In this document: positions 51,382 through 56,158 of the stretch, one piece after another | Layout of the letters: every line of letters begins with the position of its first letter | How positions within the stretch are numbered: position 1 is the stretch's first letter | Source: Anaerolineae bacterium | GTDB lineage: Bacteria; Chloroflexota; Anaerolineae; B4-G1 | Direction of reading: 5' to 3' | DNA length: 64,000 nucleotides | Assembly (NCBI GenBank): GCA_034432855.1 | Contig: DAOUBA010000058.1 | Coordinates: forward strand, 5,483 to 69,482 | The notes under the pieces: model-generated | What the model was told of the DNA's origin: nothing | The model's database searches: none | Seen by the model: the letters and a program-made list of their open reading frames with translations, nothing else | Program-made: the position numbers and the translations under genes

Positions 51382-53145
51382 CTATACCGTGTCGTCAGCC
51401 TGACGCTTGAATGCCGTACCGATGAAGACGGCCAGGATCAGAAGGATCGCCAACCCCAGCAGGATCGGCCAGGCGGGCTCGGCGGACGTCGTGGGAGCAG
51501 GTGACATCGGTGTGGGCGGGGCGGTGGGTGGGGCCAGCGTGGCGGTGGGGGATGGTGTATCGGTAGGCAGCGGGGTGGGAGACGGTGTCTCGGTTGGGAG
51601 TGGGGTGGAGGTCGGCGTTTCGGTGGGGGTCGCCGTCGCTGTCGGTGTGGGCACGGGAGTGGGAGATGGCGTCACAGTCTCCCCGGCCACGGCGGGCGTC
51701 CCGGTAAGCACAGGCGTGGCCGTCGGGGTTGGAAGTGGTGTGCCGCCAACCTCTTCGACGAGCAGGTACGTCTTGCCGCCGATGATGCAGGGAGGGTGTG
51801 GGATATCCGCATTGGGGGATACCGGCGGGCAGCGGGCCCCGGAAAGGTTCAGCATATATTTCCCGCTCACCGGCGCGATGATCTGCTCCACCCCGGCCTG
51901 ATCAACCAGCCGGGCGTGGGCTGCGATGGCAGGTAATGAGACTGTGACGTCCCTCTGCTTGCGCGCCCACACGACGCGCGTCGTGCGATCGCCCCGATTG
52001 AGCGTGACCACGCTGTAGAGCGCATGGCGCTCCTCACGGGCCGAGATGGTGCCGGCGTAGTGGGTTGTGATCAGCCGGTAGGCGTCGAATGCCGGGCGGC
52101 GGCTATGGTCTAGGCGGATGATGCCGAACGGCTCCTCTCCCACCCGTGGTGCGTTGTCCACCCACCTGTAGACCGCGATGCGCTCCACCCCCTGGCTGAG
52201 CGCCAGCGCGAATGCCTGGAGCAGAAAACCGGCCTGTTCTTCCAGCGTGATGTCGAAATTCGCCCCCGGCAGGCTCCAGTAGGGCGGGTCGGCGTTGGAT
52301 GGCGCGTTGGTCTCGTTGATCCAGATGGGTTTGGTCAGCCCGTGGGCGGAGAGCGTCGCGCGGGTCTCGCCGACAATCGCAGGGATCGTTTCGGTCTGGA
52401 AGTAAATGTGCAGCGTGACGACGTCGAAATAGTAGCCGTGTTCCGGTCCGCTGGGGTCCTGTTTGGCGACCGCCAGAAAGCGAGCCAGGTAGGTCTTGTC
52501 GTGATGGAAGGTCAGGCCGGCCAGGTGGATGACGACGTTGGGGTTGGCCTGGTGGGCAGCAAGGTAGGCGACCTTGAGCAGTTGGTAGTATTCCTCTACC
52601 GAGCCGCACCACTCGGCGCCAAACGTGGCGGGCGGAATATTCGGCTCGTTCCAGATGATCCAGCGATTGATGCGCCCGGCGTACCTGCCGACGACGCGAC
52701 GCACGACCGCTGCCCACGCGTTGCCGGGATCGTCTAGCGGCAAATCCAGGCCGCGAGGGACGCCGCAATCAGGCAACCCATCGGTGGCCCAGGCCGGGGT
52801 GTTGATCAGGAGACCGACCACCTCGCGTCCGGCGGCCTCGTCCCGCGCCAGCCATACGTCTCGCTCCTGCAGGTGCGTTTCGTTCCAGTCCTGGGCGCTA
52901 TGAGGTTGCAGTTGCGACCAGTCGAACAGGATGCGTTCCCAGCCCACGCCGGCTTCGGTTGCAGCAGCCACATCCCAGAATGCCTCGACCGCGCCGAAGC
53001 GCCGGTCAGGAGGCGGGGTCTGGGCGAGAGCCGGCACGGTCAATAATGAGCACAGGACAGATGAGCAAATGACAAATGAGCGAAAGGCGAAAGGCGAAAG
53101 GCGATAGGCGATATGTGATTGGGGCTTGGTGTGAGGTTCGATCAA
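51382..53145 (-). CDS. Cell-anchored glycoside hydrolase (GH5-like TIM barrel, WNEPN motif) with Pro/Thr-rich linker and C-terminal TM anchor
   Basis: Signal peptide; ..RWIIWNEPNIP.. (NEP catalytic acid/base context) and ..IWINETNAPS..; linker PTPTATPVLTGTP...TPSPTPLPTDTPSPT; C-terminal WPILLGLAILLILAVFIGTAFKRQ. Confidence 0.6.
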   Translation of the reverse strand: MIEPHTKPQSHIAYRLSPFAFRSFVICSSVLCSLLTVPALAQTPPPDRRFGAVEAFWDVAAATEAGVGWERILFDWSQLQPHSAQDWNETHLQERDVWLARDEAAGREVVGLLINTPAWATDGLPDCGVPRGLDLPLDDPGNAWAAVVRRVVGRYAGRINRWIIWNEPNIPPATFGAEWCGSVEEYYQLLKVAYLAAHQANPNVVIHLAGLTFHHDKTYLARFLAVAKQDPSGPEHGYYFDVVTLHIYFQTETIPAIVGETRATLSAHGLTKPIWINETNAPSNADPPYWSLPGANFDITLEEQAGFLLQAFALALSQGVERIAVYRWVDNAPRVGEEPFGIIRLDHSRRPAFDAYRLITTHYAGTISAREERHALYSVVTLNRGDRTTRVVWARKQRDVTVSLPAIAAHARLVDQAGVEQIIAPVSGKYMLNLSGARCPPVSPNADIPHPPCIIGGKTYLLVEEVGGTPLPTPTATPVLTGTPAVAGETVTPSPTPVPTPTATATPTETPTSTPLPTETPSPTPLPTDTPSPTATLAPPTAPPTPMSPAPTTSAEPAWPILLGLAILLILAVFIGTAFKRQADDTV

Positions 53146-53148
53146 CGG

Positions 53149-53544
53149 CTACTCCGGTAAGCCCAATTTGTCGCGCACGAAGTGGCGTACAGTTTTCATT
53201 GCTTTTACCGCCTCGCGGGCTTCTTCATCGGTTGCCCCTTCGCCAGGGTAGCGAAACTCGACAGCATAGGGATTCAAAAGCAGCAGCAGGTCGGTGATCA
53301 GATCGAAGGCAGGGTCAACCGCCAGCGCCAGGCGGCGTAGTTCGCGCAAGTCGTGAGTTTTGGGGAATGTTGCTCCTCGCTGTACGAGGAAAGCCTTGAG
53401 ATATTTCTCGGCACATTGCTGGCAGTGGAAACAAACGGTATTCGGTGTTGGCCGTTTCCGTTTGCGGATCAATGTGACGGCGGTGTCATAGTCCTCTTCC
53501 GCTTTACGCACCCACTCTGCCAGGTGTTCATCGGTCCCGTTCAT
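53149..53544 (-). CDS. HEPN domain protein (toxin-like partner of the nucleotidyltransferase)
   Basis: ..DYDTAVTLIRKRKRPTPNTVCFHCQQCAEKYLKAFLVQRGATFPKTHDLREL.. is a HEPN fold with an R-x(4-6)-H-like motif; start placed at MNGTDEH, overlapping the nucleotidyltransferase stop by 17 nt. Confidence 0.65.
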   Translation of the reverse strand: MNGTDEHLAEWVRKAEEDYDTAVTLIRKRKRPTPNTVCFHCQQCAEKYLKAFLVQRGATFPKTHDLRELRRLALAVDPAFDLITDLLLLLNPYAVEFRYPGEGATDEEAREAVKAMKTVRHFVRDKLGLPE

Positions 53545-53848
53545 AGAGTACCTGTCCCCGTTGAATGATTTCTTGAATAAAGCAGTCGCCAATGCGCAAG
53601 CGGTGCTGGATTTCTTCTGGCGTGCGTACCAGGATGTCCATAGGGAAGGGGATATCCAGCAGGGCGCGAGCGATGCGAGCGCTGCGCCGGGCAGGCCGAT
53701 CGCTATCTTCCATTACGACCAGCAGGTCTATGTCGCTGTCTGGCGTGGGCTGGCCCCAGGCGTAGGAGCCGAACAGGATGACTTGTTCTGGTTTGAACGT
53801 TTGCGCGATGCGTTGCGCCACTTCCGCGATCTGTTGCTCTGTGATCAT
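53528..53848 (-). CDS. Minimal nucleotidyltransferase (MNT, Pol-beta-like), antitoxin-like partner of HEPN
   Basis: MITEQQIAEVAQRIAQTFKPEQVILFGSYAWGQPTPDSDIDLLVVM.. (GS..x..DxD NTase motif); RBS ggagggagg; the ATG overlaps the recJ stop (ATGA). Confidence 0.75.
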   Translation of the reverse strand: MITEQQIAEVAQRIAQTFKPEQVILFGSYAWGQPTPDSDIDLLVVMEDSDRPARRSARIARALLDIPFPMDILVRTPEEIQHRLRIGDCFIQEIIQRGQVLYERDR

Positions 53849-55608
53849 TTTGCGCCTTCCTCCCTCCGGTTGAGCCAGAGGCGAGCAACGGCGTCGTCCA
53901 GTACAGCAGGTCGCAGGTCCTGTACGTTCAGTTGCAGCCGCTGCTGACCGTTCCACTCGTTGGCTTCGAGGTGGTAGACGATGTCCACCCGGTCGGGCAG
54001 TTTGCCGGCCCATTCTCCCTGCCGGAAAGCGATGCCGTCCCAGACCACCCGGCCGTCGGAGAACGTGAGCCGAAGATGCCTGCCGTCACCACCGATAGCC
54101 CGCTGGCCCAGCAGGCGGACGCTCCGGCTGAGGAAGAGGGGCTGGGGATTGGCGTAGCCACAGGGCTCCAGCCTGACCAACTCGCGGTACAATTCCCCCG
54201 ACATCTGTGCGAGTTCTACCTCGGCATCTACCGCCAAGACGGGGGTCAATTCCAGACCGGCCAGTTGCTCGGCGGCCAGTCTATGCAATCGCTCCGCCAA
54301 TTCATCGAGGTGTTCGTTCGAGACGGTAAAACCGGCGGCGGCAGCGTGCCCGCCGTGGCGTACCAGCAGGTCGGCGCATGCGTCGAGCGCGGCGGTGATG
54401 TGGAATTCGGGGATAGAGCGGGCGGAGCCTTTGCTGTACTTTTTGTCCACTTCGACGATGACCGCCGGGCGGTAGAACTCGTCCACCAGTCGGCTGGCGA
54501 CCAGCCCGACGATGCCGGCCAGGAAATCGGGCGCGGCGGCGAAGAGCAGCGGCGTGTCCTCACCTGCCTTTAATACCATTTCACGGGCGCGCTCGTGCGT
54601 TTCGAGCGTGAGTTGCTGGCGCTCGCGATTCAGCCGATCCAGTTGCCCGGCCAACTGCTCTGCCTCGGCAGGGTACTCGGTCTCCAGCAGCCGGTAGGCC
54701 TCCTGCGCGTGGGTCAGTCGCCCGGCGGCATTGAGCCGCGGCCCCAACGCAAAGCCGATAGCGGTGGCGTCCACCTGCCCGGCCTTGAGCCCGGCCTGCC
54801 GGCAGAGCGCCTCGACGCCTGGGCGCTCCATCCGATTGATGGATGCCAGCCCGCGCCGTACCAGGGCGCGGTTCTCGCCTAACAGGGGGGCCAGATCGGC
54901 CACCGTGCCCAGCGCGACCAGGTCGAGCAGGTCGTCTTCCTGTAATCGCACCCCATGGCTGGTCACCGGTGTCTGAGAGTGGCTGCGTAGCAGGGCCTGG
55001 GCCAGTTTATAGGCCACGCCTACGCCGGCCAGTTCGCACGGGTATGGGCAGTCGGTGCGCTTGGGATCAATTACGGCTACGGCGTCGGGGAGTCGCGGGC
55101 CAACGGAGTGATGGTCGGTGACGATGACCTCGAGGCCCAGCCGTCTGGCGTAGGCGACCTCGTCCACCGAGCGGACGCCGCAATCCACGGTGACGACGAC
55201 ACGCACCCCCTCGCGCGCCAGTTGCGCCAGCGCCGGCTTGTGCAGGCCATAGCCTTCGTCCACGCGATGGGGGATGTAGTGGCATACGTTGCCACCGAGC
55301 GCCCGTAAAATCTGTACCAGGAGCACTGTAGCGGTGACCCCATCAGCGTCGAAATCCCCGTACACGGCGATCTGCTCGCCCTGGCGCAGGGCGCGGCGCA
55401 GACGGGTGACGGCGGCGGGTACTCCCTCGACGGCAAAAGGATTGGCCTCGCCGCCTTCGCCGCTGAGGAAAGCCGCCACGTCGGCCGGGTCGGTGACGCC
55501 ACGGTTGTAAAGCACCTGCACGATGAGCGGGTGCAGGTGGGGAAAACGAGCGATGTGGCTGGGCGGGGCAGGTGGTGCGATCTGCCAGCGTTTGGGGCGT
55601 AGAGCCAT
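53845..55608 (-). CDS. recJ: Single-stranded-DNA-specific exonuclease RecJ
   Basis: DHH motifs ..IAVYGDFDADGVTA.., ..VVTVDCG.., ..VIVTDHH..; DHHA1 region ..GGHAAAAGF..; OB-fold C-terminal region. Confidence 0.9.
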   Translation of the reverse strand: MALRPKRWQIAPPAPPSHIARFPHLHPLIVQVLYNRGVTDPADVAAFLSGEGGEANPFAVEGVPAAVTRLRRALRQGEQIAVYGDFDADGVTATVLLVQILRALGGNVCHYIPHRVDEGYGLHKPALAQLAREGVRVVVTVDCGVRSVDEVAYARRLGLEVIVTDHHSVGPRLPDAVAVIDPKRTDCPYPCELAGVGVAYKLAQALLRSHSQTPVTSHGVRLQEDDLLDLVALGTVADLAPLLGENRALVRRGLASINRMERPGVEALCRQAGLKAGQVDATAIGFALGPRLNAAGRLTHAQEAYRLLETEYPAEAEQLAGQLDRLNRERQQLTLETHERAREMVLKAGEDTPLLFAAAPDFLAGIVGLVASRLVDEFYRPAVIVEVDKKYSKGSARSIPEFHITAALDACADLLVRHGGHAAAAGFTVSNEHLDELAERLHRLAAEQLAGLELTPVLAVDAEVELAQMSGELYRELVRLEPCGYANPQPLFLSRSVRLLGQRAIGGDGRHLRLTFSDGRVVWDGIAFRQGEWAGKLPDRVDIVYHLEANEWNGQQRLQLNVQDLRPAVLDDAVARLWLNRREEGAK

Positions 55609-55720
55609 CTGGACTGACCTTCGTGCGTTTTTATGACGCTAATCTTACCACAACGCGCACAAAAGGAAAAGCCCTTCTCCGCTACGGAAGAGGGCTTTCC
55701 TGTCGGTGCAGGGCGCGAGT

Positions 55721-56050
55721 TTAGCCCTTGGTGGCCCAACCCTGCTTCTGGACCAGGTCGGTGATCACCGGCACGTTCACCCACTCGCCTTTGTAGGCTT
55801 TGATTCCCAGGACAACGGCGTAGATCCACGCGATCAGGCCGATGCATGCCCAGCCCAGGAGAACGACGATAACGCCCAGCCAGATGGATACCCAGGCATT
55901 GTACTTGATGAATGGGCGCTTCTTCTTGTCCTCGATCAGCAGCATGATGATGCCGATCACAGGGCAGAAGATGTAACTCAAGAGTGCCCATAACTTGTCG
56001 TCCTGAGTGATCTCGCCGCCGCCCATTGGTGCTCCAACCATTTCTGCCAT
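55721..56050 (-). CDS. DUF4870-type small membrane protein
   Basis: ..DDKLWALLSYIFCPVIGIIMLLIEDKKKRPFIKYNAWVSIWLGVIVVLLG.. pattern; RBS gaaaggtgg; a hairpin with flanking A/T tracts downstream. Confidence 0.5.
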   Translation of the reverse strand: MAEMVGAPMGGGEITQDDKLWALLSYIFCPVIGIIMLLIEDKKKRPFIKYNAWVSIWLGVIVVLLGWACIGLIAWIYAVVLGIKAYKGEWVNVPVITDLVQKQGWATKG

Positions 56051-56158
56051 GCGTTTCACCACCTTTCCGCCCGGCACGCGTGGGATTTGGTGAAGCACCC
56101 ACGTGTCGTGCTCCACCGCCGGAACTGGGTGTTATTTTAGCAAATCCCGATGTAGATG

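Follow-up and report, generated by a model that had tools for sequence, protein, structure and literature searches.

A class II HEPN/MNT gene pair retained behind recJ in a clade of Anaerolineae

In a 64,000-nucleotide (nt) stretch of an Anaerolineae genome (contig DAOUBA010000058.1, positions 5,483 to 69,482; hereafter the window), the gene for the exonuclease RecJ is followed, in overlapping reading frames, by genes for a minimal nucleotidyltransferase (MNT) and a HEPN-domain protein. This pair is a class II HEPN/MNT two-gene module (PF05168 HEPN with a PF01909/PF18765 MNT), and what is new here is a class II copy fixed inside a recJ operon and retained across a clade. The order recJ-MNT-HEPN occupies the same slot in eight Anaerolineae sequence lineages, the window and at least seven others. 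We favor, with a little better than even confidence, a single ancient class II insertion behind recJ, followed by vertical descent and read-through expression, in which the link to recJ is one of position.

The recJ-MNT-HEPN locus and its class

The three genes and their junctions are as follows (aa, amino acids; ssDNA, single-stranded DNA).

53845..55608, minus strand: recJ, 587 aa, ssDNA-specific 5'-3' exonuclease; TIGR00644, DHH, DHHA1, RecJ_OB
53528..53848, minus strand: MNT gene, 106 aa, ATG at 53848-53846 and stop TGA at 53530-53528; MntA-like fold
53149..53544, minus strand: HEPN gene, 131 aa, ATG at 53544 and stop TAG at 53151-53149; PF05168 (HEPN-T, class II)
53845..53848, minus strand: ATGA formed by the recJ stop (TGA, 53847-53845) and the MNT start
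53528..53544, minus strand: 17-nt overlap of the MNT 3' end with the HEPN 5' end
53855..53867, minus strand: Shine-Dalgarno-like GGAGGGAGGAAGG, in the final codons of recJ, 6-18 nt upstream of the MNT ATG

Both overlaps had been described in a first-pass annotation of this DNA and are confirmed at these positions. In the profile search, RecJ scores 518.1 bits with TIGR00644 (cutoff 396.9), and PF01368, PF02272 and PF17768 are present. We place the HEPN start at ATG 53544 rather than at the upstream TTG 53592, as homologs of 126-137 aa align from residue 1. Public gene calls (GCA_964605935.1, contig CAZSEQ010000001.1) match the coordinates of recJ, MNT, HEPN and the gene that follows them, including this ATG.

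The HEPN protein matches PF05168 (E = 7.3e-27; 94.3 bits, cutoff 22; the match spans 114 of the 117 profile positions) and no other Pfam family at E <= 0.01, DUF86 (PF01934) and PF08780 included; it has no NCBIfam and no PADLOC match. In an alignment of 64 homologs, R98 continues as Y-P-G-E-G-A-T, with no histidine at +5 to +7. The canonical Rx4-6H RNase motif, to which the first-pass annotation had tied its reading, is therefore absent, as is RX4HXY. The positions D18, H40, Q42, Q43, C44, E46, K47, H64, D65, R98, Y99, P100 and G101 are invariant or at least 90% conserved; Y99 is invariant in all 64 sequences, and the histidines H40 and H64 are both in the at least 90% set. Anantharaman et al. 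2013 (PMC3710099) named this HEPN type HEPN-T, in which the usual His is often replaced and another conserved His is present (their Table 1). The AlphaFold model (pLDDT 92.6) is a five-helix bundle with R98-Y99-P100-G101 in the loop between helices 4 and 5. Foldseek matches it with probability 1.00 to the uncharacterized HEPN-T proteins 4nqf, 1wol, 1ufb, 1o3u and 2hsb and to the sacsin HEPN 3o10, and no HepT chain is among its first 50 matches. Q43-x-x-E46 resembles, by analogy only, the Q44/E47 Mg2+ site of the Legionella HEPN (PMC11586414).

The MNT matches PF18765 (50.8 bits, E = 2e-13) and PF01909 (44.6 bits, E = 1.9e-11). Its GSx10DxD motif (G27-S28, 10 residues, D39-I-D41) is invariant, together with D71, in 39 homologs. 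The protein scores 41.5 bits with the NCBIfam MntA model NF047752, below the cutoff of 60; despite this score, its fold and motif are MntA-like. The best Protein Data Bank (PDB) matches of the AlphaFold model (pLDDT 93) are the MNT antitoxins 8xeh/8xeo, 7bxo and 7ae9, plus HI0073; these include antitoxins of the Legionella, Shewanella and Aphanizomenon type VII systems. In PADLOC, several models of the candidate defense system PDC-S09 match the MNT (best E = 1.7e-12), and none matches the HEPN protein.

We assign the pair to class II, as defined by Yao et al. 2020 in Nucleic Acids Research (NAR; PMC7641770), because (i) the HEPN protein belongs to PF05168, (ii) an MNT with GSx10DxD lies upstream, (iii) Y99 is invariant and (iv) there is no Rx4-6H. 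The first-pass annotation had described HEPN/MNT pairs as RNA-targeting toxin-antitoxin or abortive-infection modules. The two-gene, toxin-antitoxin-like architecture is indeed present, whereas for this class the label of RNA-targeting toxin is only putative: RNase toxicity and AMPylation have been shown for class I pairs only (PMC7641770, PMC11586414).

Retention and loss behind recJ

Below, L numbers denote the sequence loci of relatives that were compared with the window, and identities are relative to the window. The other carriers of recJ-MNT-HEPN are L081 (Logan), L082-087 (JGI, ENA), L088-093 (GCA_964653285.1, JGI), L174/175, L176/177 (GCA_054923675.1), L178/179 and L194/195. Where full length, their RecJ proteins are 68-77% identical to that of the window, the HEPN proteins 73-89% and the MNTs 64-85%; L081 holds only the last 46 residues of RecJ, which are 87% identical. 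The recJ-MNT junction is ATGA in the window and L081 and has a 1-nt spacer (TGAgATG or TGAaATG) in L082, L088, L174, L178 and L194; in L176, recJ ends at an earlier TAA, 17 nt before MNT. Every carrier keeps an MNT/HEPN overlap of 14-17 nt, and in the carriers the gene after HEPN starts 3-5 nt past the HEPN stop.

In a neighbor-joining tree, the recJ-linked HEPN proteins form one clade, apart from the copies found at TPR/PMT genes, in a LarA/FAD-oxidase/HAD operon, at ftsK and after btpA. Between carriers, the ratio of nonsynonymous to synonymous divergence (dN/dS) is 0.03-0.18 for HEPN, 0.08-0.22 for MNT and 0.15-0.20 for recJ, and synonymous divergence (dS) is near or beyond saturation. Thus MNT and HEPN are functional, under purifying selection, and have long been in place. 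A recent accidental insertion, against which the first-pass annotation had set its reading, is not borne out by the synteny of recJ.

Species representatives of the Anaerolineae gave another picture. Among them, the best match to the window RecJ is 77% identical, and none of 80 recJ loci contains a relative of MNT or HEPN; the order in these loci is small membrane protein, recJ, NAD-dependent epimerase (in some), 587-aa protein and a convergent PAP2 gene. The pair was at first read from this survey as a one-off insertion, a reading that was overturned by the loci encoding the closest HEPN and MNT proteins.

Some relatives appear to have lost the pair. In the recJ tree, five carriers share one clade with L001-L003. 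L003 has 175 nt between recJ and the 587-aa gene, and this stretch looks like a deletion scar, since it opens with the carrier junction (TGAgATGACC) and then runs into unrelated DNA. In L002 a sulfatase gene lies behind recJ, and L001 has no MNT start in 50 nt of downstream sequence.

Four further observations concern the carriers. A RecJ C-terminal tail of 19-20 aa (VLDDAVARLWLNRREEGAK; residues ~568-587, window 53845-53905) is confined to the clade whose members carry or have lost the module, and the carrier L176 is without it; the tail, which holds the MNT Shine-Dalgarno sequence, may have arisen with the insertion. In L176 (3900-5402), two tandem MNT-HEPN pairs lie behind recJ; the first is 53%/57% identical to the window pair and divergent in its middle, but almost matches the second in the N-terminal half of MNT and at the C-terminal end of HEPN, which suggests either cassette replacement by recombination within conserved motifs or an assembly artifact of a metagenome-assembled genome (MAG). 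In L082 (5400-5513), a 37-aa open reading frame (ORF) that follows HEPN (MNINDYYDPVRKRANATPL...) is what remains of the epimerase gene; the epimerase was therefore deleted independently there, and the window lineage has none of it. Finally, the G+C content at third codon positions (GC3) of the module stays low despite saturated synonymous divergence, with no amelioration.

Away from recJ, we compared the context of 80 more distant MNT-HEPN loci (HEPN 44-70% identical). MNT lies directly upstream of HEPN in 77 of them, the other three being cut by a contig end, and recJ is present in none of the 80. In a rough ORF-based count, a long co-directional ORF ends at the MNT start in 35 of 55 distant modules (~64%, against 22% in an opposite-strand control), one opens just after the HEPN stop in 34 of 53 (~64%), and both are present in 17 of 43. 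The MNT-HEPN family seems to lodge habitually within gene arrays. Extra tandem copies of the module occur in L176, L129 and L134. As to mobile carriage, there was no phage match and only three weak matches in IMG/VR; the best plasmid matches are ~40% identical and mainly to Bacillus (B. anthracis/B. cereus) plasmids.

The slot behind recJ was likewise compared. The recJ stop overlaps the next gene, whatever its identity, in the ATGA manner in about 16 of 67 Anaerolineae recJ loci, and in non-carriers such as L004 and L029 it overlaps the ATG of the epimerase gene; the recJ junction is a tight one that predates the insertion. With relatives of the module in many unrelated operons and recJ-stop overlaps common in Anaerolineae, the coupling to recJ, which the first-pass annotation had thought unusual, does not by itself indicate a functional tie. 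In L012 (7845-8610), from another Anaerolineae clade, a 99-aa ORF and a PIN_3 protein (PF13470, 70 bits) lie between recJ and the 587-aa gene, the same 99-aa ORF being present in L011 (7989-8288); this pair is the only other toxin-antitoxin-like insertion in the recJ slot, and an independent one. A toxin-antitoxin hot spot after recJ, suggested by seven downstream matches to PF04014 (MazE_antitoxin), was rejected because the AbrB-fold proteins, all from a single clade, precede a conserved two-transmembrane (TM) protein instead of a toxin. In this different, likewise conserved small-gene pair, an ~85-aa AbrB/MazE-fold protein (PF04014) and an ~89-aa two-TM protein stand behind recJ in L015, L017, L020, L022, L024, L027, L037 and L043.

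Expression of the pair and competing explanations

The remaining features of the region lie on both sides of the three genes (MFE, minimum free energy).

51382..53145, minus strand: fourth gene, 587 aa, predicted exported, glycosidase-like
53056..53111, no strand assigned: heptanucleotide tandem repeats GCGAAAG x4.6 and GACAAAT x3.3 (Tandem Repeats Finder)
55642..55650, minus strand: extended -10-like box TGGTAAGAT, 34 nt upstream of the recJ ATG, read from the sequence
55658..55700, minus strand: G+C-rich hairpin with U-run; RNA fold MFE -38.9 kcal/mol, z = -2.1
55721..56116, minus strand: ORF for a small membrane protein, DUF4870/MamF_MmsF-like, with a weak PF09685 match

Four minus-strand genes thus stand head to tail: recJ, MNT, HEPN and the gene for the 587-aa exported protein. 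The last, a point absent from the first-pass annotation, starts with TTG 3 nt past the HEPN stop, and the close packing therefore extends past the MNT-HEPN pair. Its product combines a WIIWNEPN motif and a P/T-rich linker with a TM helix at the C terminus, gave no match in a Pfam scan, and has orthologs directly behind recJ, or behind an epimerase, in many Anaerolineae. The heptamer repeats fall in the first ~30 codons of this gene, and L003 (2560-2640) and L081 (850-900) have other heptamer runs at this position. With a repeat unit of 7, slippage would change the frame, and phase-variable expression of the fourth gene is therefore possible. Scans of the window for Rfam families and tRNAs gave no match.

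Because the pair is co-directional with recJ and overlaps it, co-transcription and translational coupling of recJ, MNT and HEPN are very plausible on the sequence. The first-pass annotation had asserted co-transcription with shared ribosome traffic; the overlaps are real and a sigma-70 consensus scan of the gene strand found no promoter- or terminator-like site in the interval from recJ to the pair, while co-transcription itself is something we infer. GGAG/AAGGAG runs comparable to that of the window also precede the MNT ATG in the other carriers. Upstream, the hairpin with its U-run is likely the intrinsic terminator of the small membrane-protein gene, which has a sigma-70-like promoter ahead of it (56162-56134, consensus scan) and is probably transcribed separately from recJ. 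The small membrane protein is a conserved upstream neighbor of recJ (tblastn synteny; the same family is called in relatives). The TGGTAAGAT box, which the consensus sigma-70 scan did not call, is a candidate operon promoter, and the hairpin/U-run and this box likely mark the boundaries of the recJ transcription unit.

We propose that the module entered once, long ago, exactly at the post-recJ junction in an Anaerolineae ancestor, whose compact and functionally mixed operon would have comprised recJ, a gene for an NAD-dependent sugar epimerase and one for an exported glycosidase-like protein. It would thereafter have been inherited mostly vertically under purifying selection, with occasional loss, and the epimerase gene would have been lost later in the lineage of the window. 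With apparently no promoter of its own, the pair would depend on the recJ promoter for transcription and on coupling for translation, with the MNT ATG at the recJ stop behind a Shine-Dalgarno sequence in the recJ tail and the HEPN ATG inside MNT. The MNT would thus be made first, as an active MntA-like nucleotidyltransferase, and would bind its HEPN partner and nucleotidylylate it, most likely at the invariant Tyr99 of the R-Y-P-G loop, thereby keeping HEPN inactive. Free HEPN, the presumed toxic component, would act on RNA or on a nucleotide ligand through a non-canonical site, for which H40, Q43/E46, H64 and R98 are candidate residues. The link to RecJ would then be one of hitch-hiking in an operon for expression, not of function.

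Several points weigh against this account. (i) The missing internal promoter comes from a single method, the sigma-70 consensus scan. (ii) The literature searched holds no experimental study, of toxicity or AMPylation, of any class II HEPN/MNT pair, which makes the toxin-antitoxin mechanism an extrapolation from class I pairs. (iii) The trees are simple neighbor-joining trees on MAG data. (iv) In the recJ tree, the carrier L176 does not group with the main carrier clade, and several losses or at least one lateral transfer by flank homology must therefore be assumed. (v) In every carrier, module GC3 (0.57-0.72) is 0.1-0.2 below that of the adjoining recJ (0.71-0.81). (vi) Retention at one position over genus- or family-level divergence is unusual for a selfish mobile module, and HEPN is conserved as much as recJ or more; such retention would also be expected of a host-beneficial function, possibly one connected with the operon.

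The main rival, which we regard as unlikely though the likeliest of the alternatives, is that the pair is no toxin-antitoxin but a two-subunit nucleotidyltransferase in which HEPN would bind the substrate, as in kanamycin nucleotidyltransferase. Such an enzyme would modify a small molecule, a protein or RNA in a housekeeping or resistance role. This was the original hypothesis for MNT-HEPN pairs (PMC3710099), and it agrees with the lack of Rx4-6H, with the structural grouping of HEPN with HEPN-T proteins and the nucleotide-binding sacsin HEPN, with the resemblance of the MNT to the N-domains of aminoglycoside adenylyltransferases as well, and with the stable chromosomal position under strong purifying selection. 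However, MNT-first order, gene overlap, promiscuous contexts and tandem copies are typical of toxin-antitoxin modules. An invariant Tyr, moreover, lies in the loop that corresponds to the Y-loop AMPylated in class I HEPN toxins (PMC7641770), and the conserved His, Gln, Glu and Arg suggest that HEPN has a catalytic or ligand site of its own.

Functional coupling to RecJ appears improbable. The module would here have been recruited so that HEPN activation or the MNT:HEPN ratio tracks RecJ or DNA damage, or the MNT would modify RecJ or a RecJ substrate. The arrangement recurs in at least eight lineages, each with start and stop closely coupled at recJ, HEPN is more constrained than recJ, and there are precedents for toxin-antitoxin pairs in repair or stress operons (yafNO in the E. 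coli dinB operon, mazEF after relA). Yet the pair is in 0 of 80 other Anaerolineae recJ loci and recJ in 0 of 80 distant MNT-HEPN loci; L003, L002 and apparently L001 lost the pair and kept recJ; recJ overlaps any gene behind it; and a link between RecJ and HEPN in a toxin-antitoxin context was not found in the literature searched. The operon, too, holds envelope and sugar genes unrelated to repair, continuing with genes for a sugar epimerase and for a secreted, glycosidase-like product, and the tie to DNA damage or RecJ expression levels that the first-pass annotation had raised is, like any tie to RecJ function, unsupported. More doubtful still is a module domesticated in the recJ operon of this clade, with translational coupling setting the RecJ:MNT:HEPN stoichiometry and either HEPN under MNT control, or the MNT through an action on RecJ or nucleic-acid ends, serving as a checkpoint or regulator connected with ssDNA processing; if true, class II HEPN/MNT pairs would thereby gain their first physiological role.

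That a mobile toxin-antitoxin cassette was inserted beside recJ recently and by accident would fit the composition of the module (GC 0.56-0.58 and GC3 0.61-0.66, against 0.66 and 0.78 for recJ and a window mean GC of 0.615) and its absence from the 80 species-representative recJ loci, but it is refuted by the same junction in at least seven other lineages at saturated synonymous divergence, by the monophyly of the linked HEPNs and by a low GC3 common to all carriers.

Comparison with known systems

The locus reveals no new DNA-repair mechanism. It is instead a natural case of an apparently promoter-less copy in a housekeeping operon, long kept under strong purifying selection and lost in relatives, and it is therefore a convenient entry point to the questions of whether class II pairs are toxin-antitoxins and why such modules persist in operons. 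Archaea, thermophiles and Chloroflexota have very many class II HEPN/MNT pairs, though the literature searched demonstrates an activity for none of them.

Among toxin-antitoxin pairs located within housekeeping or stress operons are those of dinB-yafN-yafO-yafP and relA-mazEF in E. coli. The likeness to these is that a small two-gene module is co-transcribed behind a gene of DNA metabolism or stress. The toxin families differ, and the module here lies mid-operon whereas theirs lie at the operon end. The yafNO and mazEF operons have known regulation by LexA and ppGpp; for recJ-MNT-HEPN, in contrast, no regulatory link is known.

Other class II modules share with this one the Pfam families, an MNT gene upstream of and overlapping the HEPN gene, GSx10DxD kept in the MNT, and a HEPN protein without RX4H but with a conserved Tyr and a conserved His elsewhere. 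Solved class II proteins, each a single protein, include Thermus TT1696 (1ufb) with its MNT 1wot, ST0689 (1wol), TM0613 (1o3u) and AF0298 (2hsb), and these are the best sequence and fold matches of the pair. We see no structural difference from other class II modules, the likeness being one of architecture only.

With the type VII HepT/MntA systems, which are class I, the pair shares the MNT fold, the catalytic motif and the two-gene order. It differs from them in that the HEPN partner is PF05168 rather than DUF86/PF08780 and is without RX4HXY, and in that the MNT falls below the MntA cutoff. The Y99 loop nonetheless corresponds in position to the Y-loop that is AMPylated in class I HEPN toxins (PMC7641770), and with this conserved loop Tyr the same AMPylation logic as in type VII systems is therefore plausible.

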